A DNA stretch of 64,000 bases, from NCBI GenBank assembly GCA_964035575.1, contig OZ037839.1, positions 620,001 through 684,000 on the forward strand, in the 5' to 3' direction. This DNA comes from Rhynchopus sp. YZ270_cl-10 (lineage: Eukaryota). The notes beneath the pieces are model-generated. The model searched no databases. It saw nothing but the letters and a program-made list of their open reading frames with translations, and was not told the origin of the DNA. Positions 11,871-35,632 of the stretch are shown piece by piece. The translations under genes were made by a program, and so were the position numbers. Positions within the stretch are counted from its first letter, which is position 1. Every line of letters begins with the position of its first letter.

Positions 11871-13223
11871 CTAACCCTCCAAATGCCCTTGCTTGTCATG
11901 CTCCTGTTTGTCCAGTTCCTGCTTGTCCTCGTCCTCTTGTGCTTGCATCAAACCTTCTCCTTCTTGTCCTGCTTTCAATGCAATACATTGTCTTGCATCT
12001 CCAGACACGTCTGTTCGTACCAGATCTTCTGTCCGCACACCTCCGAACTGTTCCGTAAACCTTGCGTAAATGTCACGCACACATGCATCGAAGGTCTTCG
12101 TGACGCCAAAGCCATGGTTCTTTTGGGCTTCATTCGGGAGAGACATCTCGTGAATGTCGATGTTGCCTGGCAAGACGACTGTTGTGAGTGCGTTGCAGTT
12201 ACCCAGGAAGTAGGGCTCGATCTCTGTGTCACTGGCAATACCTGACATGTCCAGCGTGGTCAAGGATGTGCAATCTTGTAGGAAATTCATACCAATGCTC
12301 TTAACATTGATCAGTCCTGATAAGTCTGCTGTTGTCAACGCGGAGCACTCTTGCATCCAGCTGTCCTCAATTTCGGTCACATTGGTCATCCCTGAAAAGC
12401 TGATGGTGGTCAACGACGTGCAGTAGGTAAGAAAGCAGCAGCCGATCCTCGTGACACTGCAAAAAGCTGATAAATCAATGGTTGCCAACGAGGTGCAATA
12501 CGAGAGGAAGTTGTGCTCAATGTGCGTGACTCTGCGCCATCCTGAGATGTCAATCCTTTTCAGCGACTTGCAGCGGTGGAGGAAGTAGTCACCAACCGTC
12601 GTCACACTCGTCATCGCGGATAAGTCAAGCTCTGTGACGCCACTTTCTTTGAGGAACGAGTTCCCTATCACCGTCACACCAGTGAACCCTGACACGTCAA
12701 GGCTCGTCAACGATTTGCAACTAGAGAGAAAGAGTCCCTTGATGTGCGTAACGTTGCACAATCCCGACAAGTCAACGGTTTCCACCGACGCACACTCGAA
12801 GAGGAATCCACGCTCAATTCGCGTCACCCCAGACACAGCAGAGAGATCAAGTCTCGTAAACGATGCTTCCGACAAGAACCGGTTCGGGATAACAGTCGCA
12901 ACCTCCGCCTGAAGAAGCAGAGAAGCCACCTCAGGATCCTTCACAGTCGACAACCTCGCTTCGGAAATGTCTGTCTCACCCAAGGCACGAAGTGCCTCAA
13001 GAGATTGGTACTTCGTCGACTTCGTCAACACGACTGTGTCTCCAGCACTCAGTTCTGTGATGTCCTCTCCTTCCTCCTTCCCTCCGAAGCCCATGTGGAA
13101 GCTGTCTTCGCACAACCCTGTTGCAGTCGCCACCTTCTGCCGCATCGTCTCCGTTGTGTCATCCTCACCCACCTCAATCACGAATTTGGTGTCATCATCA
13201 TATCCCTGCACACACAGTTCCAT
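11871..13223 (-). CDS. Ubiquitin-like domain + LRR protein (copy 3, longer LRR plus C-terminal extension)
   Basis: UBL N-terminus nearly identical to copy 2, followed by about 10 divergent 25-aa LRRs. Confidence 0.85.
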   Translation of the reverse strand: MELCVQGYDDDTKFVIEVGEDDTTETMRQKVATATGLCEDSFHMGFGGKEEGEDITELSAGDTVVLTKSTKYQSLEALRALGETDISEARLSTVKDPEVASLLLQAEVATVIPNRFLSEASFTRLDLSAVSGVTRIERGFLFECASVETVDLSGLCNVTHIKGLFLSSCKSLTSLDVSGFTGVTVIGNSFLKESGVTELDLSAMTSVTTVGDYFLHRCKSLKRIDISGWRRVTHIEHNFLSYCTSLATIDLSAFCSVTRIGCCFLTYCTSLTTISFSGMTNVTEIEDSWMQECSALTTADLSGLINVKSIGMNFLQDCTSLTTLDMSGIASDTEIEPYFLGNCNALTTVVLPGNIDIHEMSLPNEAQKNHGFGVTKTFDACVRDIYARFTEQFGGVRTEDLVRTDVSGDARQCIALKAGQEGEGLMQAQEDEDKQELDKQEHDKQGHLEG

Positions 13224-14883: not shown

Positions 14884-15835
14884 CTAAAAACCAACGTCAC
14901 CTAGTCTGCTGCGTACAACGTTGCTACACTTGTCCATTCCGTCTACTTTCGACAACCTTTTGCAGTTGTAGAGAAACCTACCACCAATCGTGGTGACTGC
15001 TTGCAGGCCGGTGAAGTCCACTTCCGACAACGATGTGCAGTTGTAGAGAAACCCCTCACCAATCGTGGTGACTGCTTGCAGGCCGGTGAAGTCTACTTCC
15101 GACAACGATGTGCACTCGGAGAGAAAATCATCACCAATCGTGGTGACTTCTTGCAGGCCGGTGAAGTCCACTTCCGACAACGATGTGCAGTTGTAGAGAA
15201 ACCCCTCACCAATCGTGGTGACTGCTTGCAGGCCGGTGAGTTCCACTTCCGACACCACCATCAGCTTTTCAGGGATGACCAATGTGACGGATATTGAAGA
15301 CAGCTTTTGTGCGGACTGCAACATTTCGCAGTTGTAGAGAAAATAATCACCAATCGTGGTGACTGCTTGCAGGCCGGAGAAGTCCACTTCCGACAACGAT
15401 GTGCAGTTGTAGAGAAACCCCTCACCAATCGTGGTGACTGCTTGCAGGCCGGTGAAGTCCACTTCCGACAACGATGTGCAGTTGTAGAGAAACCCCTCAC
15501 CAATCGTGGTGACTGCTTGCAGGCCGGTGAAGTCCACTTTCAACAACGTGCTGTTGGAGAGAAACTTGTCACCAATCGTGGTGACGCAGGGTAATGCAGG
15601 CAGGTGCAGTGTGATGCCACAGTTGTCCTCCACATTGGGTACGCAACTGAAACCAATGCGCGTTACGTCACTACGTGAGAAGAACTCTTCTGGAATCTCA
15701 GTCGCAACTTCTGCCTGAAGAAGCAAGCTGGCCACCTTCGGATCGTCCACCTGCTGCAACCTTTCTGCTGTGATGTTTGTCTCACCCAATGCATGAAGAG
15801 CTGATATGGCTTCGTACTTCATCGTTTTCGTCAAC
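14884..15835 (-). pseudogene. 3' (linker + LRR) half of the UBL-LRR gene interrupted by the retrotransposon
   Basis: Begins LTKTMK-YEAISALHALGE, i.e. continues the 5' half at 24845-25056. It has 8 LRR units and is near-identical to copies at 26372, 30812 and 48644. Confidence 0.9.
15817..15835. repeat. Target-site duplication, copy 1 (cttcatcgttttcgtcaac)
   Basis: An identical 19-mer lies at 24844-24862; the intact paralog (~49439-49457) has a single copy. Confidence 0.95.
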
Positions 15836-15905
15836 CGTGGGGGCCCGTTTTCGATGCATGCACCCCTATCCGAGATAGGTGATACAATACATCGTGGAGG
15901 TGATG

Positions 15906-18900
15906 TTACATAAGTCCATCACCGCCCCTGCTGTGCCCATCCTTCTGCTTCGTCTGCTTCTTCTTGAAGAAGCCTCCCAGCGTCGTCTGTCGCCCCTTCG
16001 AGGTGTCGTGGTGGCGGCGGCAGCAGTGATCCAGCGTACTCTTCTCTTGCACACAGTTCCCGCACCTCGAGAGTCTATGCTTAGTGCATGCTTCGTGTCG
16101 GATCGGTAACCCGTCGTCGTTGGAGTGGTGCGCAAAGCAGCAATGCATCAGGTCTGCCTGGGCGTTCTTCGAGCAGGCATCACACTTCGTCTTCCGGTGC
16201 AGCACACATATCGCAAACTGGAAGATCGGAACCGCTCCTTCAGGTGCCTTCACGGGTGCGTCCCCTGGACGCACGTGCTCATGGTGCCGGTAGCGAGCAT
16301 GCGCAGATGTCTCCTGTTCAGCCCGCTGGATGAATGGTAGTGCCCTCCTGCCCCTAACTTCTGTGGAGGGGTACGCCGTCTCAGCAGAATACTCCCCCAT
16401 CCATGTACCTCTCGCTCTATCGCCACCACGGAGCTCCGCCTCAGACATGCCTTCGGAGCTGCGTTGCAGACGGTACGCCACACCAGCATCGTATAGCGCA
16501 CGCAATGCCTTCAACGTTTCTTCTCCGCCGGCAAAGATAGGACGGCGGTCGATGCCTGTGATGGCGTTCGCCCCAAACGAAGCGAGAACATGCGTTACCT
16601 TCACCTTCCCCGGATGGAGAGAGCTCTCCGAAAAGGTTCTGAGTGAAGCCAACATATGCCCAAAGGTGGTCGTCTTCGCCATTTCTCTGTGGACCAGCGC
16701 TACTGGCACCACGTCGTCATCATCGTCGTCTTCCTCACTCCCGTCGTCTTCCCCCCCATTGTTGACTTCTTCCCCAGTCCCATCCCTCGGCTGCTTCAGC
16801 TTCGGCGCTATTCTGCCGGTCTTGTCCCCAGGTCGGATGTCCATCCCTGTGGCAACCTCGAAGTCGATGAGCAGCTCCATGTGGGAGACTTCACGTCCAG
16901 CTTCGTCGCTCCATTGTAAACCACCCAGCCAGGAGGCAAACGCCAGCAGCAGCGCACGTCCATACGGCCACCTCCTTTTCAGGGGGGTGTAGTCCACCAA
17001 ACTGTTCGCGTGTTGCGTCGTCGTGTCCAACTCCGGCGCCCACGTCCACGGGTATCGGTCTTCTTGCAGTCGCGGGTTCGCCGCTTCCGGTCTGCTCCAC
17101 TTGGAGCGTGCGATGAGGATGCGCACCATCATCTTCTGCAGGTCTGCAACACGGGCGCATTCCAAAGGTGTGTCCGGTGTGCACATGCCGCAGATAGCGA
17201 GACAGTTTGGCCAGGTCGTTCTGTCAATGTCCAACAGCAAGGGGTACTCCGCACGAATGCTACTCCATGCTTCACATTCCCACCACAAGTGTTTGTGATT
17301 TTCGTCCACCCCCGCTTCGCAGTGCACGCAGATGGCCGAGTCCCGTATGCGCGCTCTCGCAAGTCGCACCCCCGTTATCGCACCGTCAGCTACAATGTGT
17401 CGCAGCGTCCCCGCCTCGTAATCCGTCAAAGTTTTGCTTCGGGTGAGAGCAAGGGTTTTCTCCTTATCCACCCCCGCTTCAATACCCTTCAGGTTAGCTC
17501 TGCCTTTGCCATTGGCCTTCGCAGTCGTCTTCGTACGGGAGAGTCGAATGAAGAACATCCGTTCTCGCACAACGTGGCCCAGTCTGCCCAAGCTTACTGT
17601 CTTCACATCAACGATGCTCCCATCGTGCGTTTTCACTTTTGTCGTGTCTATCCATGACCACGCAAGGCGGCTGAGGGCTCGCGCAATCAACCCGATGGGT
17701 CCTCCAGTCTTCGCCTGCTTCGCTTTCGCACGTGACCTGCACTTTTCGACCAGCAAACAGATCTCATCCGATTTGCGTATCATCGCCGCCCACGTCATGA
17801 TCCTTCTGTAGTCGAATGCCACCGAGGGGTCGAGCAGATGGCCTTTCTCGAAGACATTCAGCATGACCGGTACGCTTCTTCGGTTCATCTTGTTCACGCC
17901 GTGGACCCCTTTCTCCACTGCAGTTGCAAGACTGTTCACGTATTTCCCAGGTGGGTCCTGCACCGTGATACCGTACACAGATTTCGACATCACTGCAGCC
18001 TGCATGATGCCTGCTTTCTCACCTTGAGTCAGCGGGAGGCATCCCACCTTACCTGCTAGCGGTCCGCATGCGTCGATGGTGTCTTCCAGCTTCGTCGGGA
18101 GCGTGGGCGTCCCAGCCTGTCGGGCCTGCACCGTCGCCCCCAGGCACTCCGACTTCTCGACGCGAGTAAGATCCGCGCCGTTCATCTGCACAGTTTCCTC
18201 TTCATCAGGACGGTTGCTCTGCCACGTGCTCTTCCCCGCGTGGACGCGTTGTCCCGTCAAGTCTGCAAAGTGTCCGGTGAAGGCGACACCCGCTCGCAGC
18301 TGGTCGAGGGTCTTCGTCAGGAGGTTGGTGTCGTCAGCATACGCCAGCCCCTGCGTGCCCGTTTCCTTCTCCACCCCGTTCATCCACACCGCCACCAGCG
18401 CATTCAGGAAGATTACGCTCAGTGGGCATCCTTGGAGGATACCATTCGTCGCAAACCATTCTTTGCCAAGACCTGCCGGAAGTTTGAAACGCCTCCCCAG
18501 CTTCTTGTATATACCCCGGATGGGGCGCATCATGTTGTCGGGAAGACCCAACCGTTCGACGAGCTGGAACATGATCTCTTGGGGAACACGGTCAAAGCAC
18601 TTCTGATAGTCGAAGGAGGCTAGATAGATAGGTGTGTCGTCTATCAGAGCCTCCTCCATCTTCGCACAGAGAAACCACAGCAGGTCTTCGGTTCCGTGTT
18701 TGTTCCGGAAGCCGTGTTGCCGCTCGTGAATCCAGGATTCCTGCCACGTCGCCACTTTGCGGAGTCGAGTCGCCGCCCATAACCTGTACATCACACTGGT
18801 GATGGTAATGGGTCGCTGCTTCAGGGGCTCCTCGCCTTCTCCTTTGGGGATGAGCACCACCAACGCCCTCGCAATCACCCTGGGCCAGTTCCCAGTATCC

Positions 18901-19397
18901 TCGATCAGGTTCAGGCAGCGCGCGAGTTCCTCCAGCAGTGTCAAAGGCAGTTCCTTCAGCTCCTCCACCCTCCACCCATCGAGGCCTGCCGCCTTTTTCC
19001 GCTTCATCTTGCCGATGGTCGTACGGAGGTCTTCGGCGGTCAGGGGTTCGCATACACAAGGGGCCCCTTCAGGAATGTGTTCCTTGAACCTATCAAAGAA
19101 CGTCGTCCACGCAGGTTCTTCGGAATCGTCGTACATCCGGAACACCCCACCCCAAGCACGGTCATCCATGAGCAGTTCATCCATCTCCTGGAGGTTAGCT
19201 GTAACCGTGCCGTCCTCCCGTTTCAGGAACGTGGTGTGTGACGACGTAGCCTTCCGCAGGAACGAGAACACCTTCGCTGGGTTCACCTTCATGTGTTCCT
19301 TCATTGTGCGGCGCCATTCCTTGATGCGGGCCCGACGCCGTTGCTCCAGCAGGACAAAACCCCTCTTCTTCAAGCAGCCAAGGCCCACACAACGCCT
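15906..19397 (-). CDS. ORF2 C-terminal part: reverse transcriptase, zf-RVT-like finger, tandem Cys/His module, PIP box (frameshifted relative to APE)
   Basis: Motifs KAAGLDGW, RPITIT, QHGFR, FDYQKCFDRV, GILQGCPLS, YADD and CVHC..ENHKHLWWEC, with C-terminal QTTLGGFF. Confidence 0.93.
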   Translation of the reverse strand, partial: RRCVGLGCLKKRGFVLLEQRRRARIKEWRRTMKEHMKVNPAKVFSFLRKATSSHTTFLKREDGTVTANLQEMDELLMDDRAWGGVFRMYDDSEEPAWTTFFDRFKEHIPEGAPCVCEPLTAEDLRTTIGKMKRKKAAGLDGWRVEELKELPLTLLEELARCLNLIEDTGNWPRVIARALVVLIPKGEGEEPLKQRPITITSVMYRLWAATRLRKVATWQESWIHERQHGFRNKHGTEDLLWFLCAKMEEALIDDTPIYLASFDYQKCFDRVPQEIMFQLVERLGLPDNMMRPIRGIYKKLGRRFKLPAGLGKEWFATNGILQGCPLSVIFLNALVAVWMNGVEKETGTQGLAYADDTNLLTKTLDQLRAGVAFTGHFADLTGQRVHAGKSTWQSNRPDEEETVQMNGADLTRVEKSECLGATVQARQAGTPTLPTKLEDTIDACGPLAGKVGCLPLTQGEKAGIMQAAVMSKSVYGITVQDPPGKYVNSLATAVEKGVHGVNKMNRRSVPVMLNVFEKGHLLDPSVAFDYRRIMTWAAMIRKSDEICLLVEKCRSRAKAKQAKTGGPIGLIARALSRLAWSWIDTTKVKTHDGSIVDVKTVSLGRLGHVVRERMFFIRLSRTKTTAKANGKGRANLKGIEAGVDKEKTLALTRSKTLTDYEAGTLRHIVADGAITGVRLARARIRDSAICVHCEAGVDENHKHLWWECEAWSSIRAEYPLLLDIDRTTWPNCLAICGMCTPDTPLECARVADLQKMMVRILIARSKWSRPEAANPRLQEDRYPWTWAPELDTTTQHANSLVDYTPLKRRWPYGRALLLAFASWLGGLQWSDEAGREVSHMELLIDFEVATGMDIRPGDKTGRIAPKLKQPRDGTGEEVNNGGEDDGSEEDDDDDDVVPVALVHREMAKTTTFGHMLASLRTFSESSLHPGKVKVTHVLASFGANAITGIDRRPIFAGGEETLKALRALYDAGVAYRLQRSSEGMSEAELRGGDRARGTWMGEYSAETAYPSTEVRGRRALPFIQRAEQETSAHARYRHHEHVRPGDAPVKAPEGAVPIFQFAICVLHRKTKCDACSKNAQADLMHCCFAHHSNDDGLPIRHEACTKHRLSRCGNCVQEKSTLDHCCRRHHDTSKGRQTTLGGFFKKKQTKQKDGHSRGGDGLM

Positions 19398-20910
19398 CTA
19401 TCCCAGGAAGGTCGAGGTCCCAGGTGTCACTCTTCAGTAGATGCTTCTTCTTGCGGATTTTCGCCCACAGCTGCCGTTCGTTCAACGATTCTGCAGATGG
19501 CTGACCGAAGCGCTTCCTCCGATCACCAATGAGCTGCTCCATCTGACGACATGTCTTCTGCAGTTGAGCCGTCTCCAGGTTCACAGCATCCGGCGTGTCG
19601 CAGTCCATGCGGGCCGTCCGATGTCGGAGAACGTCGGGTTGCACCTCCCCTCTCCCCCTGTGGCGTTGTTGCTTCGGGTCTGAGTCTGCAGCACCTCTCT
19701 TCAGCAGGTAGTCCTCCGCAATCTTGCAGAAGCGTGCCCAGCGATCTTCAACCGACATCTTCGTCAGGTCGGCTTCAGGGGCAGCGTTCTCCTGCATCAC
19801 CTTCGCTGCAAGCTCCTTCTCCTTCTTCGCCGGCCATTTCGTCCAGTCGTCGCCGATCAAAGAAAGGGGAGGGCGTGCCTGCGGTGCCTTCTGCTCGTAT
19901 CGCGTCAGGTCTAACGTCAACACCACCGGTCTGTGTACCGGGAGGCAGCTCTCTTTCCAGACCACCACTTTGGAGATCGCAGGGGCAGCCACGTGGTTCG
20001 CCAGCACCAAGTCGATACGTCTGCCAGACGATGTGGAGGTATAGCATGTGTTCTCTGCTGCCTTACCCAACTGCTGTGCGTAGGTATCTGCCGCATCAAC
20101 CCATTTGCCGGAGGAGATGGCCGCTCGAATGGCTAGACTTTCGTTAGCCTCTACGTTGAAGTCTCCGGCAATGAACACCGGTATGTCCCCAAGGCTGGCT
20201 GCTTCTTCAAAGATGCCTGTCAGGAGTTGCTCCGTGCGGTCGCTGTCAGCACACACACCATAAAACGAGAACACAGAGATGTTACGTCCCCCGCTCCCAT
20301 ATGCCACCTGCGCATGCGTAAAGCGGCATTCGTTCCACGCTTGTTGGGCACATTGTGGCGGTACTGCTCTGGTCGGTATGTCAGCGCACGTCATGATCGC
20401 AACTCCACCATTCTGCGTGCGCGTGCGCAGAGGGTCTGATCCCTGGCTTCGTCTGCAAGGGGCACCAAAGAGAAGCTGCTTGGCACCATACCCCTTCACG
20501 TCGTTTGCTGCCCCCTTCATCTCTTCTTCTGTGAGGCGCACCTCCTGCAGAGCACAAACGTCCACATCCCACTCCCCCACCGCAGGGTGTGCCCTCAGAG
20601 ACGTCACGTTTGCCGTGCCAAGCGACATGGTCGACGGACCCGGATGCTCCTCCACGTCTCCACATGTCAGCAGTGACCCCCTGCCCAAAAACGCCCCTCG
20701 TCGCCTCCCTCGACGCACCCTGTGTCCGACCCCTCGCCCCACCCCCCTTCGCGTTCTACCCTTACCCCTTGTCCCCGACAGCATACAGCCCGCAGAGCGC
20801 AAACGATGCTGACCCCTTGTTGGGGAGACAGTTTTCACAAAAACGTCTCGTTCTCCAACTACGCACGAAGAAGCCAATCCTGTGCCGTACCCTTCCACCG
20901 CACCACACCG
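19195..20910 (-). CDS. ORF2 N-terminal part: linker, 2A-like peptide and apurinic endonuclease (APE) domain
   Basis: GRGSLLTCGDVEEHPGP followed by TANVTSL, ALQEVRL, IAGDFNV, RRIDLVL and PVHRPV. The frame opens immediately after the ORF1 stop. Confidence 0.88.
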   Translation of the reverse strand, partial: RCGAVEGYGTGLASSCVVGERDVFVKTVSPTRGQHRLRSAGCMLSGTRGKGRTRRGVGRGVGHRVRRGRRRGAFLGRGSLLTCGDVEEHPGPSTMSLGTANVTSLRAHPAVGEWDVDVCALQEVRLTEEEMKGAANDVKGYGAKQLLFGAPCRRSQGSDPLRTRTQNGGVAIMTCADIPTRAVPPQCAQQAWNECRFTHAQVAYGSGGRNISVFSFYGVCADSDRTEQLLTGIFEEAASLGDIPVFIAGDFNVEANESLAIRAAISSGKWVDAADTYAQQLGKAAENTCYTSTSSGRRIDLVLANHVAAPAISKVVVWKESCLPVHRPVVLTLDLTRYEQKAPQARPPLSLIGDDWTKWPAKKEKELAAKVMQENAAPEADLTKMSVEDRWARFCKIAEDYLLKRGAADSDPKQQRHRGRGEVQPDVLRHRTARMDCDTPDAVNLETAQLQKTCRQMEQLIGDRRKRFGQPSAESLNERQLWAKIRKKKHLLKSDTWDLDLPGIEALCGPWLLEEEGFCPAGATASGPHQGMAPHNEGTHEGEPSEGVLVPAEGYVVTHHVPETGGRHGYS

Positions 20911-23900
20911 TCACCGCCCCACATCGCGCAGGGTGTTGCGGCCTACCAACCTGTTGTCTAGTCCCTGGACGGGACGAAACGCGATCTCGATGACGTCCCC
21001 CGCTACCTTCACGACAGTCACCGGGATGGCTGCGCCGTTGCCTCCCTCCTCGCAGTACTCCATGGAGTCGCCAGCCTCCAGCACTGCGTTCCCGTACGAC
21101 TCCTCGTTCTTCTCGTTCCCCTCCGCCTGCTCTTTTGCGGGGACTTCCGTCCGCATCCTGCGCGGCGGACTCAGCAGCGCCACCGTCTCACCGGACTCAC
21201 TGCGGTCTTCCCGCTTGCCCGCCAGGGTCACGGCAGGTGGCGCCACCGGCACTCTGGGAGCTGGCGAGGTCTCCGCGTCCTCCTCGACAGCCGCACAGTC
21301 TGGCGATGTCTGCACCGGCAGTGCCATGTCGGCGTCGTCCATCCGTGCCTCGGCGTCTGGTGTCGTGGGTGCGGGGGTCCCTGCGCCGGCGTTCTCCCCT
21401 TGCTCCTGCTCACGTTGTGCCTGCACTGCTGCAGCACGTCTCTCCTTCTTTGCCGCCGCTTCTTCCTGTGCTGCCCGTAGTGCCTCCCGTCGTTTCTCAG
21501 CGGCCACAATGTTCCTGCGTTTCTTCTTCTTCTTCGGGGACGCCACCACTACCTCCACATCACCGGCGCCAGCAACGTCCGCAGTCGGCGATGTGTCCCT
21601 GGGCGGTGCTGACCGCGACCGGTTCCGTGCTTCGGCGACTTCTACGACTACCCCCGGCTTTCCACGGATGGTGTCAGCCCTCCTCCTCCTGCGGCGCGGG
21701 CTCAGCTCCTCAACCTCACTGGACCCATTTCCCGCACGTATCCGCTTACCTGCCATCGTTGCGGGCTCCGGTGACATCACGTCCTCGGCATTCCCGTCTG
21801 GGAGTGTGTCCAACAATTCATCCGCCATCTGCATCTCGGGTGTTGTGGGCGCTGCAGTGGGCACTGCGACAGTCGGGGCCGTAGTAGCAGCAGCCTCCCC
21901 CTCGCGCTGCCTGGCGTTCTCAGCAGCAACTGCAGCAGCGGCGGCGGCGGCTTCCTCCTCCTGCTGCCAGAGGATTGCAGCAGCAGCGTCGGCTTCCTCA
22001 CGCTGCTTGAGGACTGCAGCAGCGGCGGCCTTCTCCTCCTCCTCACGCTGCCTCAGGGCTGCAGCAGCAGCGGCCTTCACCTCCTCCTCGCGCTGCTTGA
22101 GGGCTGCGGCAGCGGCGACCTCCTCCTCCTGCCTCAGGGCTGCAGCAGCAGCGGCCTTCACCTCCTCCTCACGCTGCTTGAGGACTGCAGCAGCGGCGGC
22201 CTTCACCTCCTCCTCACGCTGCCTCAGGGCTGCAGCAGCAGCGGCCTTCACCTCCTCCTCGCGCTGCTTGAGGGCTGCAGCAGCGGCGGCCTTCGCCTCC
22301 TCCTCACGCTGCCTCAGGGCTGCAGCAGCGGCGGCCTTCACCTCTTCCTCACGCTGCTTGAGGACTGCAGCAGCAGCGGCCTTCGCCTCCTCCTCACGCT
22401 GCCTCAGGGCTGCAGCGGCGGCGGCCTTCGCCTCCTCCTCCTCCTCCTGCCTCAGGGCTGCAGCAGCAGCGGCCTTCACCTCCTCCTCACGCTGCTTGAG
22501 GACTGCAGCAGCAGCGGCCTTCGCCTCCTCCTCACGCTGCCTCAGGGCTGCAGCGGCGGCGGCCTTCGCCTCCTCCTCCTCCTGCCTCAGGGCTGCAGCA
22601 GCAGCAGCGGCGTCCTCTCTCGCAGCAGCCGTGGCCTCCTTCGGCATGGAACAGAGCTTGCCCACTTGCTCCAGCATGGCCGCCATCCACACCTGCTGCT
22701 CCTTCCGTTGCTCCACCCGTTCTTCCCGCAACTGGGCCGTCAGCGACGCCACCGTCTCCTGCAGCAGGGTCTGGAGGCGCTCGCCCACCAGGCGGTCCAA
22801 CCTCTCCTCCATCCGGCGCTCCAACTCCGCCCACTTCTCGCCTGCGTCCTCAGGTGATGGGGCGGGCGACGTCATTGGGGGTTGACCCTTCGGCGTCCGT
22901 TGCTTCGTTGTTGTTGTTGTTGTTGGTGGAGGTGTCCTTGATGTGGTAGTGGGTGGCTTCGCTGCAGCTGGCGCTGTTGCTGCTTGGCGTGCGTGCGCAG
23001 CCCAGGACACCCAACCGTAGTCGGGCCCAGTGCCACGGTTGTGCTGCGCTGTCGCCGCCGGCGCCGTCCGGGCACCAAATGTCGGACCAGACGCATGTGC
23101 GGTATGTACCTTGGCCTTCTGTTTCGCCCCCGGACCCGGAGCCGTTGCCCTACCCCCGCCCTCCTTATGCCCATCCTTGCGGATCAGCAGCCCCTTCCCG
23201 TTCCCCTCCATGTCCATGGCCCACGTCGGCGGATCCAGCTTCGCTCCCACCACCCAACGCCATCCCTCCAGCCTCCGCAGCGGCGTCACCGTCCACCCTG
23301 CGCCTGCCAGCGACTCCATCACCGCTTCACCGGACGTACCCGACGGGAAACCGGACACCACGTATCGACCTTCGGGCGCCTTTCCCTCCTGCATGAGTGC
23401 CGCATTTGCACGCTCCTGATCCTCCTTCTTCACCCGTATCCCCAGGGACTCGTACCTCGCCGCCACTCCCCATCCCCCCATCCGGGTCGCCAGCCCCTGG
23501 GCCTCTTCTAGCCCCACCCCGTCCACCAACCACACGACAGGCAGATGCTCCGACTGCTCGCGTCTCATCCGGAAGAAGACACCCCCCTTCCCACTCTGCT
23601 TCAGGCAGCGCTCTGCTACGTCCTCCCTTACGTCGGCCACCGAGGAGATCAGCTTACCCTCCTGCCACAATGGTGGGCGGTTGAGGTTGCACCCCACCTC
23701 CGCACGCATCTTCTTCCCCGCTGACACCAGGTCCTGCGCTTGTCCTGCTGTCGGCCTCATCGTCACAAACACCGTCACCAGTTGGACGGCCGCCGACGCC
23801 TTCTTCCCCCCGTTTCCTCTCCCCGGCCTCAGCCTCCCCACCACGTACACGGCCGTGCTCGCCGCCCCGTTCACCTTCCCCCCATTCCCCTGCTTACCCA

Positions 23901-24723
23901 TGGGGCACTGCATCTTCTCCCCACCAGACTTCGGGAAGGACCCGAAACCCACCCACGTCACGCCCGGCGTGCGCGCGATCTTCCCCTCTGCCTCTACCTC
24001 TCTACCCTGCGGCACAAGACAGACCCCCTCCGACTTATCCACCACCTCCCCCCACGGCACAAGCGTCGATCCCACCCACTCCGATTGCAGCAATGTCAGC
24101 GCTGCCGTCGTCTTCTTTTTCCCTCCCCCCTGGGTGAAGCCCCCCTCCGTCCCCGCCTTCGCATCGTTTCGCGGTTGCGGCACGGTGTACGGCTTCTCCG
24201 TCACCTCCAACGCACCCCCCACCATCGCCTTGCGGGCCCGGTCTTCGGCGGCTTCTTCCCCCGTGCTCGTGGGGAGGACGCACAGGTAGTGGCATGCGTC
24301 CACGTACGCCACCGTCACCGCTGCACCGCTGCCCTTCTCCTTCGGGTGCACCTTCAGCACACGCACCTCCCCATCCTTCACCGAGAAGGCATACACCTCC
24401 CGCATCAGCACCTCCGCCAACGCCTTCAGGGTCAGGTGGTCCCCCCAGGACCCCTGCTTCGCCATCGCCGAGCAGTACCTCCGGTAGGCGGACGGTCCTC
24501 CGTCAACGTGCTCACCCCAATTCTCCGCTTCCCGTTCCAACACCCCCACCGCCATCTCCCTCAGCCCCCCGTGCGCCGTGGCGTCTCCGTGCACAGCCAT
24601 CGAGACCGCCTTAAATTGGCAGTCTCCGTTCCCCCCTGCGTCCTTTACCCGCATGTCGAAGCCCCTCAGGTATTTCTGCAGCACCCCCTTTTCCCCCCCT
24701 TGGCCACCTGCCCCTCCGCACAT
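20911..24723 (-). CDS. Retrotransposon ORF1: OTU-family cysteine protease, RRM-like region, Ala/Glu-rich coiled coil
   Basis: GGNGDCQFKAVS...WGDHLTLKALA...AYVDACHY is an OTU catalytic Cys/His pattern; RYVVSGFP is an RNP2-like motif; it also carries (KAAAAAALRQREEE)n. The first element-internal ATG is at 24723. Confidence 0.82.
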   Translation of the reverse strand: MCGGAGGQGGEKGVLQKYLRGFDMRVKDAGGNGDCQFKAVSMAVHGDATAHGGLREMAVGVLEREAENWGEHVDGGPSAYRRYCSAMAKQGSWGDHLTLKALAEVLMREVYAFSVKDGEVRVLKVHPKEKGSGAAVTVAYVDACHYLCVLPTSTGEEAAEDRARKAMVGGALEVTEKPYTVPQPRNDAKAGTEGGFTQGGGKKKTTAALTLLQSEWVGSTLVPWGEVVDKSEGVCLVPQGREVEAEGKIARTPGVTWVGFGSFPKSGGEKMQCPMGKQGNGGKVNGAASTAVYVVGRLRPGRGNGGKKASAAVQLVTVFVTMRPTAGQAQDLVSAGKKMRAEVGCNLNRPPLWQEGKLISSVADVREDVAERCLKQSGKGGVFFRMRREQSEHLPVVWLVDGVGLEEAQGLATRMGGWGVAARYESLGIRVKKEDQERANAALMQEGKAPEGRYVVSGFPSGTSGEAVMESLAGAGWTVTPLRRLEGWRWVVGAKLDPPTWAMDMEGNGKGLLIRKDGHKEGGGRATAPGPGAKQKAKVHTAHASGPTFGARTAPAATAQHNRGTGPDYGWVSWAAHARQAATAPAAAKPPTTTSRTPPPTTTTTTKQRTPKGQPPMTSPAPSPEDAGEKWAELERRMEERLDRLVGERLQTLLQETVASLTAQLREERVEQRKEQQVWMAAMLEQVGKLCSMPKEATAAAREDAAAAAAALRQEEEEAKAAAAAALRQREEEAKAAAAAVLKQREEEVKAAAAAALRQEEEEEAKAAAAAALRQREEEAKAAAAAVLKQREEEVKAAAAAALRQREEEAKAAAAAALKQREEEVKAAAAAALRQREEEVKAAAAAVLKQREEEVKAAAAAALRQEEEVAAAAALKQREEEVKAAAAAALRQREEEEKAAAAAVLKQREEADAAAAILWQQEEEAAAAAAAVAAENARQREGEAAATTAPTVAVPTAAPTTPEMQMADELLDTLPDGNAEDVMSPEPATMAGKRIRAGNGSSEVEELSPRRRRRRADTIRGKPGVVVEVAEARNRSRSAPPRDTSPTADVAGAGDVEVVVASPKKKKKRRNIVAAEKRREALRAAQEEAAAKKERRAAAVQAQREQEQGENAGAGTPAPTTPDAEARMDDADMALPVQTSPDCAAVEEDAETSPAPRVPVAPPAVTLAGKREDRSESGETVALLSPPRRMRTEVPAKEQAEGNEKNEESYGNAVLEAGDSMEYCEEGGNGAAIPVTVVKVAGDVIEIAFRPVQGLDNRLVGRNTLRDVGR
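21950..22610 (-). repeat. ~45-nt coding minisatellite (KAAAAAxLxQREEEx)n in ORF1
   Basis: More than a dozen imperfect 15-aa units seen directly. Confidence 0.9.
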
Positions 24724-24759
24724 CGCGTCGAGGCTGCCCCCCGCCGCCGTCCTTCTTCC

Positions 24760-24844
24760 CCGCGCTTTAGCAGACGCCTCCCCCCATAGAGGAGGGGGGC
24801 GTCTCCCGAGGGTACCCCGTGGAGGCGCGTCGTCTCTCACCCTC
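24760..24844 (-). ncRNA. HDV-like self-cleaving ribozyme at the retrotransposon 5' end
   Basis: Minus strand: P1 GAGGGU/ACCCUC; P2 CG(A)CGC/GCGCG; P3 GCC/GGU; L3 UCCACGG; P1.1 CC/GG; P4 AGACGCC..GGCGUCU; J4/2 GCUAAA. G1 coincides with the TSD boundary. Confidence 0.8.
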
Positions 24845-25056
24845 TTCATCGTTTTCGTCAACACGACTGTGTCTCCAGCACTCAGTTCTGTGATGTCCTC
24901 TCCTTCCTCCTTCCCTCCGAAGCCCATGCGGAAGCTGTCTTCGCACAACCCTGTTGCAGTCGCCACCTTCTGCCGCATCGTCTCCGTTGTGTCGTTCTCA
25001 CCCACCTCAATCACGAATTTGGTGTCATCATCATATCCCTGCACAAACAGTTCCAT
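24845..25056 (-). pseudogene. 5' (UBL) half of the interrupted UBL-LRR gene, in frame with retrotransposon ORF1
   Basis: MELFVQGYDDD...VVLTKTMK runs without a stop into the element sequence RVRDDAPP. Confidence 0.9.
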
Positions 25057-26371: not shown

Positions 26372-27379
26372 CTAAAAACCAACGTCACCTAGTCTGCTGC
26401 GTACAACGTTGCTACACTTGTCCATTCCGTCTACTTTCGACAACCTTTTGCAGTTGGGAAGAAAATAGTCACCAATCGTGGTGACTGCTTGCAGGCCTGT
26501 GAAGTCCACTTTCGACAACGATGTGCAGTTGCAGAGAAACCCGGCACCAATTGTGGTGACTGCTTGCAGACCGGTGAAGTCCACTTCCGACAACGTTTCG
26601 CAGTTGTAGAGAAAATCATCACCAATCGTGGTGACTGATTGCAGGCCGGTGAAGTCCACTTCCGACAACGATGTGCAGGAGAAGAGAAAAGAATCACCAA
26701 TCGTGGTGACTGCTTGCAGGCCGGTGAAGTCCACTTCCGACAACATTTTGCAGTTGCAGAGAAAATAATCACCAATCGTGGTGACTGATTGCAGGCCGGT
26801 GAAGTCCACTTCCGACAACGTTGTGCAGTCGGAGAGAAACCCGTCACCAATCGTGGTGACTGCTTGCAGGCCGGTGAAGTCCACTTCCGACAACGGTGTG
26901 CAGTTGTAGAGAAACCCGCCACCAATCGTGGTGACGCAGGGTAATGCAGGCAGGTGCAGTGTGATGCCACAGTTGTCATCCACATTGGGTACGCAACTGA
27001 AACCAATGCGCGTTACGTCACAACCTGAGAAGAACTTTTCTGGAATCTCAGTCGCAACTTCTGCCTGAAGAAGCAAGCTGGCCACCTTCGGATCCTCCAC
27101 CTGCTGCAACCTTTCTGCTGTGATGTCTGTCTCACCCAATGCATGAAGAGCTGATATGGCTTCGTACTTCACCGTTTTCGTCAACACGACAGAGTCTCCA
27201 GCACTCAGTTCTGTGATGTCCTCTCCTTCCTCCTTCCCTCCGAAGCCCATGCGGAAGCTGTCTTCGCACAACCCTGTTGCAGTCGCCACCTTCTGCCGCA
27301 TCGTCTCCGTTGTGTCGTTCTCACCCACCTCAATCACGAATTTGTTGTCATCATCATATCCCTGCACACACAGTTCCAT
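26372..27379 (-). CDS. Ubiquitin-like domain + LRR protein (7 LRR units)
   Basis: Intact ATG-initiated ORF with 75-nt repeats encoding LSEVDFTGLQAVTTIGxxFLxxC. Confidence 0.9.
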   Translation of the reverse strand: MELCVQGYDDDNKFVIEVGENDTTETMRQKVATATGLCEDSFRMGFGGKEEGEDITELSAGDSVVLTKTVKYEAISALHALGETDITAERLQQVEDPKVASLLLQAEVATEIPEKFFSGCDVTRIGFSCVPNVDDNCGITLHLPALPCVTTIGGGFLYNCTPLSEVDFTGLQAVTTIGDGFLSDCTTLSEVDFTGLQSVTTIGDYFLCNCKMLSEVDFTGLQAVTTIGDSFLFSCTSLSEVDFTGLQSVTTIGDDFLYNCETLSEVDFTGLQAVTTIGAGFLCNCTSLSKVDFTGLQAVTTIGDYFLPNCKRLSKVDGMDKCSNVVRSRLGDVGF

Positions 27380-30811: not shown

Positions 30812-31666
30812 CTAAAAACCAACGTCACCTAGTCTGCTGCGTACAACGTTGCTACACTTGTCCATTCCGTCTACTTTCGACAACATTTTGCAGTTGGAGA
30901 GAAAATAGCCACCAATCGTGGTGACTGCTTGCAGGCCGGTGAAGTCCACTTCCGACAACGTTGTGCAGTTGGAGAGAAACCCGCCACCAATTGTGGTGAC
31001 TGCTTGCAGGCCGGTAAAGTCCACTTCCGACAACGATGTGCAGGAGAAGAGAAAATAATCACCAATCGTGGTGACTGCTTGCAGGCCGGTGAAGTCCACT
31101 TTCGACAACGTTGTGCAGTTGTAGAGAAACCCGCCACCAATCGTGGTGACTGCTTGCAGGCCGGTGAAGTCCACTTTCGACAACAATGTGCTGTTGGAGA
31201 GAAACCCGCCACCAATCGTGGTGACGCAGGGTAATGCAGGCAGGTGCAGTGTGATGCCACAGTTGTCATCCACATTGGGTACGCAACTGAAACCAATGCG
31301 CGTTACGTCGCTACGTGAGAAGAACTCTTCTGGAATCTCAGTCGCAACTTCTGCCTGAAGAAGCAAGCTGGCCACCTTCGGATCGTCCACCTGCTGCAAC
31401 CTTTCTGCTGTGATGTCTGTCTCACCCAATGCATGAAGAGCTGATATGGCTTCGTACTTCACCGTTTTCGTCAACACGACAGAGTCTCCAGCACTCAGTT
31501 CTGTGATGTCCTCTCCTTCCTCCTTCCCTCCGAAGCCCATGCGGAAGCTGTCTTCGCACAACCCTGTTGCAGACGCCACCTTCTGCCGCATCGTCTCCGT
31601 TGTGTCATCCTCACCCACCTCAATCACGTACTCCTTTTCTCCAAAACCCTGAACAGTCAGTTCCAT
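30812..31666 (-). CDS. Ubiquitin-like domain + LRR protein (5 LRR units)
   Basis: MELTVQGFGEKEYVIEVGEDD... start, with the same LRR class as 26372. Confidence 0.88.
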   Translation of the reverse strand: MELTVQGFGEKEYVIEVGEDDTTETMRQKVASATGLCEDSFRMGFGGKEEGEDITELSAGDSVVLTKTVKYEAISALHALGETDITAERLQQVDDPKVASLLLQAEVATEIPEEFFSRSDVTRIGFSCVPNVDDNCGITLHLPALPCVTTIGGGFLSNSTLLSKVDFTGLQAVTTIGGGFLYNCTTLSKVDFTGLQAVTTIGDYFLFSCTSLSEVDFTGLQAVTTIGGGFLSNCTTLSEVDFTGLQAVTTIGGYFLSNCKMLSKVDGMDKCSNVVRSRLGDVGF

Positions 31667-32110
31667 TGTGTTGTCTGTGTCTCTCTGTGAAGCTAGAAAG
31701 TCAAATTTGACAGCCGCAGACTCTGGCAATAGAAAGAATGGGATGTGGTTGTGATGGCTCAAGACTGTGCAGTTGATACAGACGGCACACATTCATCCTG
31801 AATATTCGTATCTCGTTTGGTGTATACCACAGGAGCTTATGAGGAGTATATGAAGGTTTCGTGAACAAAGTCGTGTTCATGACAAGCTGTGGAAATGAAA
31901 AGTTTATGAGAAGTCTTTTTTGGTGGGGTGTTCATGAACACCATCTGAGGTTACCAAAATCTGCGAATTCTTTGTGAGGTAGCACACCCACCACCCCCCC
32001 ACCTTACCCTTCAAAGTAGTTCATGTTTTTTTTTTTTTTTTTTACGCTTTTCTAAATTCTTCCACATTTTTATCCAAACTGGTTGCTCCTCCAACATACC
32101 CCCTCCCCCA

Positions 32111-35100
32111 TCACCTTGCAGGCCCCACCGTTAGATGCGCCGTCCCCACACCCTCACACACCGGCAGCTGCACCACAAGCACCTCTTCATCCTCCTCCTC
32201 CTCTTCTTCCTCTTCCTCTTCCTCCTCCTCCTCCCCCTCTTCATCACGCTCCTCCTTCCCCTTTAATTTGTGGATTGGTGCAATGATTTTTATGTCATCT
32301 GGTTGGTCCCATTCTGAACGATACCGGAGGTAGGAGGATAAGGCGCGTATTGAAACTGCATGGTGCGTGGCTGCAACATGCTGCACGCCCCGGGGAAGCG
32401 ATACTAGGTGGGGTTGCGACAGAATGCCATTTGCTGAGAGACGTGCCAGCCACGTTACCGCATAGACCCCTTCTGTATGACGCGTTGTAAGGCTGTACCA
32501 TCGATGCCGTCTCCCCTCTTCCACCCCTTCCACCAGCTCCTCCACCACCCTCCCTGCCCTCTCACGCCATTCCTCACAGCTTGCGGAGATCAGCTCCTTC
32601 GTTGTTTGTTTGTTTAATACAACCTGGCAAAACCCGACCGGTCTGTACCCTCCGCCCCCTCTTTTCTTGCTACTCTCATATACCCTTGTTGTCATTCCGA
32701 TGCGAATATCGTGCATCGGAAAATGCAGTGTTCTTGCCAAACAGATTATCCTTCTTTTTGTTAAACGGCTAATCAAAGTAAGGTTTGTAACGCCTATCGA
32801 ATGGTACATTGGGAGTGCGGAACGTCCTCCGGTAGTGGAAAATGCAGAGAGGAGATCGGTAGTGAGGGTTTGTGGGGTTTCATCTTCTTCGCATAAATTC
32901 GGAAGCGCTGAAGCGACCTGAGGCACCACTTCTGGGATTGTTTTGATAATATTCGACCGCCCGACCCACCCCATCAGATTCCATAACGATCCTTCAACCG
33001 CATCCTCCTCATCCGCAGTAAGACCTCTCTGGCATAAAGCCCGCTCCACAGCAATCACAGAGTTTGAAGCAAACCGATGTACCTCCCCAGCATCGTCGGT
33101 CCAGTGGTTGCGTTCTTTTGTTTGAAAAAATGTGTCCTCTTCCGCAGGGGCATCGTACGCAATGCTTTGCATCGTTTTTACCTCGAATTTATGAGGGTCT
33201 ATAGGGTCTAAGAATGGCAGGTCTGCAAAACATTGTGTTCCCCGGTTGATGAGAATGGTGTCGAAAGAAGTGGAGGGTGCTTCGAAACGCAAAATGTTCT
33301 GAAGCACTGCGGAGCCGTCTTCATAGCATTCGGTACACAGCCTTGCGAGGGCCCCCGCTGTAGGGTGTGAACAGCACAATGCAATTTGCAGGGCAGAAAG
33401 CAGCACCTCTGGCAGCACTATCAATGCCTCCGGGTTGGGCTGTTCGGGTCCACCTCCTGATTTCTGCAAAAATGAGACGACGGAAGCAAACAAAACAGTC
33501 TCCCTTTTACAACACGCAAAAAAAAGGGGTCCACTCCTCACAATAATTTCCGCAAAATCACATCCCAACCAACAAAGAATGAGCATCATCGCCTTTTCCT
33601 CTATGGGGTCTGGGTCTACCTCCCTCCGTAGCGAGGTGGAGAGCAGCCGCATCGTTGCGGAATTTTTTTCCTCATCAGAAAGCTTCATCAGGGACATTCG
33701 AATTTCTGCAAACCAGTCTGCAACGGTCCCTTTAACGTCCTCTGAAATGAATACACCTAATACACCGTAATATGCACAGTTTACTACAAAGCTTACTTCT
33801 GCAGAACTCCCTTCACCAAGGGGAAATCCTTTGAGCACTTCACCGCGTGAAATTAATATCTCAAGAACCTCGATTATGAAATGATATGATGTATTTAATG
33901 CATGAAGCAGCACCGAACCGCGGAGCAAATCGTCGTACACAATGGCGATTCCACCCTCTGCTAGCAAAGCAATCTCAAGCAGTTCCTTATCGCGGATCAG
34001 AATCGCAAGCCTCGCTAGGGACCGCACTGCTACCACCAACTCGCCCACCGTATAATCACACAGTATTGCTTTATATCCTAGAGATTTAAACGTACGAAGA
34101 AGTACTCCAAATCGTGATGTTCCCCCCAACGAAGCAACGCTTGAGTCTTCATAAGCTGCAAACAGCACTGCAACCGGAATCGAATGATACAAACCTTCTG
34201 TGACATGCACAAATGGTTCCCATCTGTTTGCTAGGATATCAGTAAGGTATTTGTCCTCAAATAGATCAGGGTTTTCCCATATCGCATACCGGAGCACCTC
34301 TGGTGAGAAGGTTGCTGTGAGAAGGGGTGGAGGAGGGTGGTGGTGGTGGTGTCCATCTTTCAGAGCGGATGACGCTGTGGTTACATCAATGGTGGCAGCA
34401 TCGCGTAGGATGCCCCATGATGTGGTGCAGAACGCCTTAAGCATTGCCTCAGAGCAATACGTCATGATACAATGAACGATACAAAGGGGCATATCACCAA
34501 ACAACCCACCCCCACCCCTACGCAGTAACGGAGGTGTCATTGTGGTTCTGGAACTAAATATCATGCCAGCTTGGAGTGGAAACAGATTGGGACATAAAAG
34601 CAAGGTAACGACATTTTCTCCACAAAGCTCCCTTTTTTGCAGCACCGCAGCGGAATGAGACTCCACAGACAATGCACGGAGAGCCTTTTTGGAGAGATTT
34701 CTTCCATTCCTTTTTGCCCCCTTCTTCTCTCTGATGTAAGCTGCAGCGGAACCAAGCATTTGGCTGCCATGAGGTGCCGTAGAAAACCCTGACCGCATCA
34801 TTTCCTCTACTATCCATGCTTCTTTTAGATACGGAATAGGGAACTGAATATCATGAAGAAGAAGCTGGACACGCCGGTCCGCGAGGAGTTGACATAAATT
34901 GGGAATGGTGTGCTGTCTGCACAAAATTTGAAGGGATTCGCAAAGAACCAAAGCGGGGGTACGAAATATCGAGAGCGGCGAGTACTTTAATGCGACCGCA
35001 CATCCTGCGGCAGTGTTCGTAAATATCTCAGGGCGGGAGAAATTATCCCAACACACCTTTCCACGTTTTGCAAGAAGTCGTAAAACTCGTGGTGAACGGA

Positions 35101-35632
35101 ACAGAATATCGATAGGGACGGTTTCAATGTTGGATTCAATGAGGCGTACACTTTGCACCATATCTGCACGGAGGAGAGCAGAGATAGCGGAGTCGTCTAA
35201 GGGGGAGGAAGCGTTACGTAATATGGCGGCGATGTCAGCGTCCTTCCTTCTGGTGTGGATGTAATGGAGAACGACGGAGGTAACGTCATCTGGGCGGTTT
35301 TTTGTGAAGAGGTACCGTGCATCCTGCTTCGCGGAGCTGAAGATAACCAAATGGGTCTTATGGAGGCAGAGGTGTACGTCCACTCCGCAGACCCAACGGC
35401 GTTTTGGGCAGACGATATGACGGAGGGTAATGTGCGGTTCGGTTTCAACAGAAATGACGGTGCCTTTGGAATCAAGGAATGTAAACAGACCGGTCTGATT
35501 GGACCCACAGTGTGTCTGAAACACAGCGTGTCCACGCAGTTCTGCCAAGGTAGTGTCTAAAGTGGCACCCTCCGCGCACACCGTCCCAGTCTCCATGCGT
35601 GCCACATCTACAACCTCGATGTCAGGTGGCAT
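32111..35632 (-). CDS. 1173-aa hypothetical protein with a possible internal F-box-like motif and an acidic C-terminal tract
   Basis: Long uninterrupted ATG-initiated ORF. LFGDMPLCIVHCIMTYCSEAMLKAFCTTS resembles an F-box; no family is confidently recognised. Confidence 0.75.
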   Translation of the reverse strand: MPPDIEVVDVARMETGTVCAEGATLDTTLAELRGHAVFQTHCGSNQTGLFTFLDSKGTVISVETEPHITLRHIVCPKRRWVCGVDVHLCLHKTHLVIFSSAKQDARYLFTKNRPDDVTSVVLHYIHTRRKDADIAAILRNASSPLDDSAISALLRADMVQSVRLIESNIETVPIDILFRSPRVLRLLAKRGKVCWDNFSRPEIFTNTAAGCAVALKYSPLSIFRTPALVLCESLQILCRQHTIPNLCQLLADRRVQLLLHDIQFPIPYLKEAWIVEEMMRSGFSTAPHGSQMLGSAAAYIREKKGAKRNGRNLSKKALRALSVESHSAAVLQKRELCGENVVTLLLCPNLFPLQAGMIFSSRTTMTPPLLRRGGGGLFGDMPLCIVHCIMTYCSEAMLKAFCTTSWGILRDAATIDVTTASSALKDGHHHHHPPPPLLTATFSPEVLRYAIWENPDLFEDKYLTDILANRWEPFVHVTEGLYHSIPVAVLFAAYEDSSVASLGGTSRFGVLLRTFKSLGYKAILCDYTVGELVVAVRSLARLAILIRDKELLEIALLAEGGIAIVYDDLLRGSVLLHALNTSYHFIIEVLEILISRGEVLKGFPLGEGSSAEVSFVVNCAYYGVLGVFISEDVKGTVADWFAEIRMSLMKLSDEEKNSATMRLLSTSLRREVDPDPIEEKAMMLILCWLGCDFAEIIVRSGPLFFACCKRETVLFASVVSFLQKSGGGPEQPNPEALIVLPEVLLSALQIALCCSHPTAGALARLCTECYEDGSAVLQNILRFEAPSTSFDTILINRGTQCFADLPFLDPIDPHKFEVKTMQSIAYDAPAEEDTFFQTKERNHWTDDAGEVHRFASNSVIAVERALCQRGLTADEEDAVEGSLWNLMGWVGRSNIIKTIPEVVPQVASALPNLCEEDETPQTLTTDLLSAFSTTGGRSALPMYHSIGVTNLTLISRLTKRRIICLARTLHFPMHDIRIGMTTRVYESSKKRGGGGYRPVGFCQVVLNKQTTKELISASCEEWRERAGRVVEELVEGVEEGRRHRWYSLTTRHTEGVYAVTWLARLSANGILSQPHLVSLPRGVQHVAATHHAVSIRALSSYLRYRSEWDQPDDIKIIAPIHKLKGKEERDEEGEEEEEEEEEEEEEEDEEVLVVQLPVCEGVGTAHLTVGPAR

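Follow-up and report, generated by a model that had tools for sequence, protein, structure and literature searches.

How the bicistronic RNAs of long interspersed nuclear elements (LINEs) yield the protein of their second open reading frame (ORF2), and why retrotransposons without long terminal repeats (non-LTR elements) carry 2A peptides or deubiquitinases, are open questions. Both are raised by an element in contig OZ037839.1 (positions 620,001 to 684,000). This whole stretch of 64,000 nucleotides (nt) was analyzed as the window to which all coordinates refer. The full-length element, about 9 kb long, runs from 24844 to 15836 of the minus strand, which also carries all features of the element and of its host gene family given below. 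Its modules follow in the order of a hepatitis delta virus (HDV)-like fold at base 1, ORF1 with an OTU domain and RRM-like folds, an in-frame UGA-CGG, a 2A-like StopGo peptide, an apurinic/apyrimidinic-type endonuclease (APE) and a reverse transcriptase (RT). After the RT come a tandem Cys/His module, a motif resembling a PCNA-interacting protein (PIP) box and, lastly, a folded 3' end that lacks poly(A). With APE upstream of a non-LTR RT and a CCHC knuckle, a target-site duplication (TSD), no LTRs and 5'-truncated copies, it is an APE-type non-LTR retrotransposon. We propose, with a probability of roughly 0.58, that it is a recently multiplied, codon-targeting element that would use RNA-virus-like polyprotein control, i.e., a ribozyme, UGA readthrough and 2A.

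The element is bounded by a TSD of 19 nt (5' copy 24844..24862, 3' copy 15817..15835), which counts as 18 nt when the G at 24844, the last of the 5' copy and also G1 of the ribozyme fold, is assigned to the element. The same 19-mer occurs a third time at 49439-49457, as the empty site in an uninterrupted paralog. The 5' part of the interrupted host gene (24845..25056) supplies a start codon and a ubiquitin-like domain (Pfam ubiquitin, E 4.9e-5, under the curated cut-off; P0121 was compared too) and is in frame with ORF1, giving a fusion frame of 1381 residues. Its 3' part (14884..15835) encodes BspA-type leucine-rich repeats (LRR; Pfam LRR_5, E 8.3e-30). From the start codon of the host gene (25056), a single frame continues across base 1 of the element to the UGA at 20913, and it reopens until 19197. 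A preliminary description of this DNA had listed a TSD-bounded full-length element with the modules named above; we located all of them, except that APE and RT do not share a frame in this copy. It was silent on that frameshift, on site specificity, on the UGA-CGG of a sister family and on the in-frame position inside a ubiquitin-like/LRR gene.

The stop codon between ORF1 and ORF2

ORF1 stops at UGA-CGG (20908..20913), and this lone UGA (20911-20913) joins it in frame to the 2A and APE frame. The open linker in between (20692..20910) has a GUG at codon +5, its first AUG at codon +43 and an Arg/Gly-rich stretch. UGA-CGG between an upstream protein and a polymerase is the type II readthrough motif (PMC3159437; here and below, statements on cited papers refer to the parts of their texts that were available). 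In the element, CGG follows just 9 of 163 UGA triplets. Contigs across the UGA match the window, many of them with no difference, and the frame stays open downstream.

A sister family allowed a comparison over a longer distance. Its ORF1 type (P0125, P0131, P0132) is 50% identical, and P0125 stops at the aligned position. A sister contig, found in three of four runs, reads Arg-Thr-Lys-UGA-CGG and then rejoins the linker of the window family 6 nt shorter; further on, 108 letters replace 69 (+39 nt), and both length changes preserve the frame. Ahead of the first AUG, four of the seven listed codon changes are synonymous. Moreover, the Diplonema papillatum gene model P0135 carries the ORF1 middle domain in a single frame with APE-RT (E 9e-6). 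Because the sister family shares UGA-CGG and the linker indels keep the frame, we favor type II readthrough, for which we see a somewhat better than even chance.

The 2A-like peptide (20635..20691) stands directly before APE, as the preliminary description had it. It reads HPGP, i.e., it has H in place of the canonical N, whereas P0075/P0076 and D. papillatum P0004 have NPGP. We take it to resemble T2A; weak PDB matches of this region to two chain tails, which are likely 2A scars of constructs, fit this likeness. Under the proposed control, a few percent of ribosomes would pass UGA-CGG, and the 2A, 91 codons on, would release APE-RT from the ORF1p-linker part. Readthrough would thus set the ratio, and the 2A would free the enzyme. 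Of this control, already suggested in the preliminary description, the readthrough step has gained comparative support, whereas reinitiation fits part of the same data and the 2A is the H-for-N variant.

ORF2 could instead be a separate cistron reached by termination-reinitiation at the AUG/GUG of codon +5 or the AUG of codon +43, with the 2A trimming or down-tuning a short basic leader, as other ORF2-initial 2As do. We regard this as possible but rather unlikely. Several observations favor it or otherwise weigh against readthrough. The sister family has an AUG at codon +5, aligned to the GUG here, so that reinitiation accounts just as well for the preserved frame and the synonymous bias; seven of 15 differences in the compared linker piece are unlisted. 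The AUG at +43 would give a leader that places the 2A 48 residues from a start, inside the 40-80 residues usual for ORF2-initial 2As, and reinitiation has been described for SART1 (PMC3708506). A Met also lies three codons past the 2A, and in the distant relative L014 ORF1 and a 2A-bearing ORF2 are in different frames. Conservation of CGG alone is modest evidence, because the two families share about 12 of the 18 nt that follow the stop. The linker fold is not significant (z -0.02, with the sister sequence partly visible), although type II sites often have a 3' stem. Finally, H-for-N 2As are of a reduced-activity type; in L1Tc activity is reduced, not abolished (PMC3708506). Reinitiation, on the other hand, leaves the shared frame and the UGA-CGG of both families unexplained, and at +5 the window family offers just a near-cognate codon.

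Beginning 10 nt past the stop, a long-range stem of 6 bp stays paired despite the three visible sister changes; it was chosen by eye afterwards and is not counted here.

It is improbable that spliced-leader trans-splicing to a linker AG provides ORF2 with a separate mRNA, which would leave the UGA as an ordinary stop. A host that is probably a diplonemid-like euglenozoan, as judged from the diplonemid origin of the closest named RTs, would be compatible with this. Host genes here have pyrimidine tracts followed by AG, and AG dinucleotides are present in the linker before the AUG. However, the best pyrimidine tract of the linker has 13 of 20 pyrimidines versus 15-20 of 20 upstream of 10 host genes, which makes an acceptor less likely. 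A split RNA would also part ORF2 from the full-length template, and the leaky stop context would be a coincidence. A code with reassigned UGA is unlikely as well, since all three stop codons are used to terminate long host ORFs.

ORF2 and the placement of its reverse transcriptase

In a Pfam scan of the kind that the preliminary description had suggested, APE (19954..20620; Exo_endo_phos, E 1.2e-10) and the RT core (18201..18851; RVT_1, E 1.5e-19) were recognized, and the catalytic motifs of APE are present; zf-RVT had no match in this copy. A 2-nt deletion at 19382..19383 separates the APE and RT frames, so that the frame beyond the UGA covers 2A and APE but not the whole of ORF2. Contigs in three of four runs contain the two letters missing at 19382, and an intact ORF2 of 1664 residues is cluster member P0068; P0001 was also compared at the deletion. 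As the other contigs and P0068 are intact, the frameshift is private to this copy or its assembly. No APE-RT would be made from this copy, unless the deletion is an assembly error. A programmed frameshift is ruled out, because other copies are in frame.

After the RT follows a CCHC knuckle as in L1 and R2 (17274..17330), with C, H and C invariant in 21 rows. Foldseek matched the knuckle region weakly with the CCHC regions of L1 ORF2p and R2 (E 0.79 and above; predicted local distance difference test (pLDDT) score of the tail model 75). The tail model had no Foldseek match at E<=0.001; neither a restriction-like nuclease nor an RNase H fold emerged, although one may still be present. In Pfam, RNase H matched neither P0068 nor the window frames, whereas relatives do match. 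The alignment further showed a tandem C-x2-H-x4-C-x2-C-x9-12-CC-x2-HH module (16008..16208), visible in seven of 20 other aligned rows (P0075, P0005, P0133, P0008, P0010, P0011, P0014) and present once in P0136. The PIP-box-like motif (15966..15989) lies 27 residues before the C terminus; P0005 (36% identical) has such a motif at the matching place, after its Cys/His pair. Both C-terminal modules are hence as first described, with the PIP box better called PIP-like.

The closest named proteins are from D. papillatum (up to 44% identical) and Rhynchopus, and the ESM Atlas returned just unnamed RT clusters for ORF2. In quick trees of 100 rows, and of 45 of those rows, the element stood beside D. 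papillatum P0004 with moderate support (87-94). The 45-row tree separated the window, diplonemid, Rhynchopus, metagenomic and dinoflagellate RTs from L1/Tx1-like and Jockey-like rows with a support of 99 (SH-like approximate likelihood ratio test). In the 100-row tree, two dinoflagellate rows fell outside the clade by midpoint rooting. That these were quick trees, built without Ingi, Proto1, Dualen, R2 or other named-clade references, counts against this placement. The clade signature YRLW has no occurrence in the RTclass1 set in the available text of PMC3708506, where some could be concealed by line breaks. The RT motifs of the element, compared by eye, are unlike those of L1_TC, Ingi-1_Pp and Ambal-1_TP, the one Ambal reference compared, and nearer to R5/NeSL and Proto1 in the available reference sequences. 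In the PDB, L1 ORF2p and R2 are similarly distant matches. From these comparisons, the RT is probably no Ingi member but part of a broad, unnamed clade that comprises diplonemid and dinoflagellate elements.

We consider it very improbable that the element is a divergent Ingi/L1Tc member that gained an ORF1. A 5' HDV-like ribozyme, here known from sequence and fold alone, a 2A directly before APE (L1Tc also has the H-for-N variant), a C-terminal Cys/His pair, a hot spot in a coding gene family and the likely euglenozoan host would all suit such a member. Its RT motifs, as compared by eye, are not of this type but nearer to R2, NeSL and Proto1 types, and the lone Jockey-like row lies outside the clade of the element. 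Moreover, a single ORF, RNase H and a poly(A) tail are all missing: there are two ORFs, ORF1 being 1270 residues long with a conserved stop, RNase H has no match, and the 3' end is without poly(A). The L1Tc-like traits look convergent, for the RT is without Ingi motifs and its companions in the trees are unnamed elements of Diplonema, Rhynchopus and dinoflagellates.

Modules appear shuffled within the clade. OTU-APE-RT-RNase H forms a single ORF in P0009, OTU-APE-RT occurs in P0146, L025 and L027, 2A-APE-RT in P0004 and L001, and in P0135 an ORF1 domain is fused to APE-RT. Since D. papillatum has OTU-APE-RT in P0009 and 2A-APE-RT in P0004, the module stack is better seen as a variant within a wider unnamed clade. 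The preliminary description had taken the combination for an undescribed, possibly new lineage. An RT unlike Ingi and a coherent family agree with it, but the novelty of the stack is weaker, given these D. papillatum proteins and the pairing of OTU with a 2A-bearing ORF2p in Symbiodinium.

Some relatives differ in architecture. P0136 (126 members) has two 2A-like motifs before APE, and P0004 (38 members) a near-identical 2A with a long tandem-repeat N terminus ahead of it. The metagenome contigs L013, L025, L027, L016 and L022 carry several related elements in succession, three of them with OTU directly before APE-RT.

Copies, target and RNA ends

Copies were counted from protein clusters and contigs. 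The stretch is wholly or partly present in 10 of 13 listed runs and to half or more in six. Contigs from three studies tile the element, many with no differences, also across the UGA; their depth climbs from 5' to 3' but does not measure copy number. In the ORF2 cluster of 34 members, the 15 listed are mostly C-terminal pieces. A second ORF2 type (P0075, P0076) is 78% identical. Its linker matches the window family residue for residue and then switches to the second-type 2A-APE-RT, so that P0075/P0076 are probably recombinants of the two families. The second types, too, have the OTU motifs, the 2A, the Cys/His pair and the PIP-like motif. The modules thus recur in other copies and in the sister family, as a coherent and recently multiplied family would have it, and these comparisons support one. 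A one-off chimera, decayed copy or assembly artifact, for which the frameshift of this copy and the recombinant-like P0075/P0076 might speak, is refuted by the ORF2 cluster, the contig tiling and many near-identical protein copies, and by the perfect TSD with its empty paralog.

Among 48 metagenome loci, many without a 5' end, two had a 2A motif and three OTU motifs; none showed UGA-CGG before a 2A or an HDV descriptor match. A search for longer proteins gave eight matches, none a close ORF1-ORF2 fusion, which is weak evidence. An IMG/VR scan returned 139 pattern matches and no relatives. The P0014 cluster (33 members) and P0006/P0120 are other families of the same RT clade; P0014 ends with about three Cys/His modules.

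Seven ubiquitin-like + BspA-LRR paralogs form the target family in the window (6813-7865, 8444-9487, 11871-13223, the interrupted 14884-25056, 26372-27379, 30812-31792 and 48644-49741), partly within near-identical segmental duplications. Six of eight long family ORF1 proteins (P0121, P0122, P0123, P0127, P0128, P0130) start with different host ubiquitin-like domains, all joined in frame at the identical codon, just past the domain. The flanks of the other two, P0124 and P0126, are unseen because both begin at an internal Met. The 5'-truncated P0062 and P0002, the latter a second-type copy, are fused at the same host place, and the contig joint 20125/24866 marks a further insertion there. Insertion into the ubiquitin-like/LRR gene family is therefore codon-exact, which is the strongest feature of the element. 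The sister ORF1s P0125 and P0132 have other flanks, so that the evidence of targeting from ORF1 holds for the window family.

A bolder version of our proposal would make the element the representative of a new clade-level non-LTR group, in which ribozyme, UGA readthrough and StopGo act in series and in-frame targeting of host genes is purposeful. Uncut host transcripts would lend cap, spliced leader and start codon to a ubiquitin-like-OTU-ORF1 fusion, and the ribozyme would act as a switch between message and template. In the 5' 121 nt, the host's frame is the only one of three that is open. Since an in-frame fusion may arise by chance in about 1 of 7 cases by a rough estimate, borrowing of the host start is a possibility. 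It is the least secure part, also in view of sister-family copies without fusion, and the bolder version as a whole appears doubtful.

ORF1 from its own conserved Met (20911..24723) encodes 1270 residues. The OTU cysteine protease domain (24289..24633; Pfam E 8.6e-10) bears out the first description of ORF1; its Cys and His motifs are retained in the sister family, and the OTU region of the ORF1 model aligned with OTUD3 (VIA-align Z 7.4, root-mean-square deviation (rmsd) 4.2, 102 aligned). The model also has ferredoxin/RRM-like folds (23224..23787; Z about 5, rmsd 2.4-3.6, 65-80 aligned), which are insufficient taken alone but likely bind RNA, as far as a low-confidence model can tell (mean pLDDT 55, about 60-84 over the RRM-like region, six sequences). 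Foldseek found nothing at E<=0.001 with this model, nor did the ESM Atlas yield a usable match for the middle part. ORF1 homologs combine OTU with the same middle region, and one (P0255) has zinc knuckles, as would be expected of a gag-like ORF1. A 45-nt Ala/Glu-rich tandem repeat (21935..22617) differs in copy number among copies and is lacking in the sister family. At the ORF1 C terminus, a small beta-rich domain (20914-21080) is kept in both families after a long divergent low-complexity stretch. That OTU might cut off the host ubiquitin-like domain is unsupported, the junction being without di-glycine.

The HDV-like ribozyme fold was found by a descriptor scan (24761..24844), in a region open only in the ORF1 frame. 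The match begins exactly at 24844, the first base of the element, as the preliminary description had placed it; there were two matches on both window strands and none in 30 element shuffles. The fold has the nested double pseudoknot with a catalytic C: P1 of 7 bp, P2 of 4 bp, P3 of 2 bp, L3, P1.1 GG, a long P4 and a C-U-A-A-A J4/2. The short P3 speaks against a ribozyme, as does an Rfam scan with six chance-level matches and no ribozyme. Self-cleavage at 24844 is hence a prediction. The other descriptor match, at 57726 (minus strand), is GU-rich and likely due to chance.

The 3' end (15836..15928) folds into two hairpins closed by a terminal stem. The final 100 nt gave a fold z of -5.5, equalled by none of 200 shuffles, and adjoin the TSD, so the hairpin 3' end without poly(A) holds as first reported. 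An 8-nt word near the 3' end (15849-15856) recurs in the target site (15822-15829); it may be chance or a priming aid.

From these parts, a replication cycle can be proposed. The element would be co-transcribed with the host gene, and the ribozyme would excise its RNA at the first base. ORF1p would be the abundant protein of the ribonucleoprotein particle. APE would nick the conserved target, and RT would prime on the structured 3' end, perhaps aided by pairing of read-on RNA with the target. Target priming would yield TSDs of 18-19 nt and leave many copies truncated at the 5' end. PCNA would be recruited by the PIP-like motif, and OTU may shield element proteins or stalled ribosomes from ubiquitin-dependent decay.

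Elsewhere in the window, we noted an inverted repeat of 391 nt (40290-40680 / 53421-53811; 92% complementary, 12.7 kb apart), possibly the ends of a DNA transposon, and a 7-nt tandem repeat of 79 copies with 99% matches (10620-11170). Further genes encode a cytochrome b5-fused fatty acid desaturase (4674-5966), a 1173-residue ORF without Pfam match (32111-35632) and, on the minus strand, a 1790-residue LRR protein with a hydrophobic N terminus (58421-63793).

Comparison with known systems

Most modules of the element are known from elsewhere: ribozyme and 2A from L1Tc, OTU with 2A from Symbiodinium, and the gene-family hot spot from ingi/RHS. What appears new, from the comparisons made here, and can be tested are a conserved, presumably leaky stop placed in series with a 2A, and the codon-exact in-frame targeting. 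We found no account of this family or of UGA readthrough in a non-LTR element in the available literature texts; 'undescribed' is provisional, because Repbase Reports, Dfam, most subscription journals and preprint supplements lay outside the search.

The nearest named relatives are P0004, P0009, P0135, P0028 and P0030 of D. papillatum and Rhynchopus (up to 40-44% identical). P0004, in which a near-identical 2A precedes APE, is without Cys/His pair and PIP motif. P0009 is OTU-APE-RT like the element, with RNase H and no 2A. These proteins are labelled by automatic annotation only, and the genome paper defers the classification of transposable elements (PMC10161547). Dinoflagellate RTs (P0137, E 8e-24; P0138, with OTU) lie on the same side of the tree, with RTs just 22-29% identical. 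SymbioLINE and SymbioLINE-Dnmt share TSDs, the lack of poly(A) and an enzyme domain in ORF1 (PMC5890265). In S. necroappetens, OTU lies N-terminal to a 2A-bearing ORF2p, and OTU or Josephin occurs with 2A-bearing ORF2p in Symbiodinium and Haematococcus (PMC13405545). Several Symbiodinium elements have RNase H, and in the available texts no ribozyme, readthrough or site specificity is described for them. OTU has also been found in Ginger and Helitron.

Dualen likewise combines a ubiquitin-family protease with a 2A (PMC13405545), and the RT motifs of R5/NeSL and Proto1 resemble those of the element by eye. Unlike the early-branching groups Dualen/RandI, NeSL and Proto1, the element has OTU, not Josephin or Ulp1, and no RNase H; a restriction-like endonuclease after the CCHC knuckle, a Dualen trait, was not recognized in the C-terminal model at E<=0.001. 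Taken together, these relatives suggest that diplonemids and dinoflagellates hold a large clade that is still unclassified. The element also supplies an APE enzyme whose protein-coding target is sharply defined.

Alphaviruses, tobraviruses and furoviruses have type II UGA-CGG before the polymerase (PMC3159437). The element differs from the viral sites in that no 3' stem is supported, a 2A follows, and the host of the motif is a retrotransposon. Two diverged families share a short cassette of UGA-CGG, about 90 codons and 2A, which is directly testable by reporter. Readthrough, if true, would give non-LTR elements a further, virus-style way to express ORF2.

L1Tc and ingi come closest in overall design, with a 5' HDV-like ribozyme, a 2A just before APE and a C-terminal Cys/His pair (PMC5814959, PMC12278014), and ingi also inserts at one position of a protein-coding multigene family, RHS (PMC7563717). 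They differ from the element in their single ORF, RNase H, poly(A) tail, Pr77 and C2H2 fingers, in their RT motifs and in being without OTU and in-frame stop. Ingi/RIME insertions in RHS are reportedly in frame. The element hence appears to converge on the trypanosome ingi package of ribozyme, 2A and coding-gene hot spot from another RT lineage.

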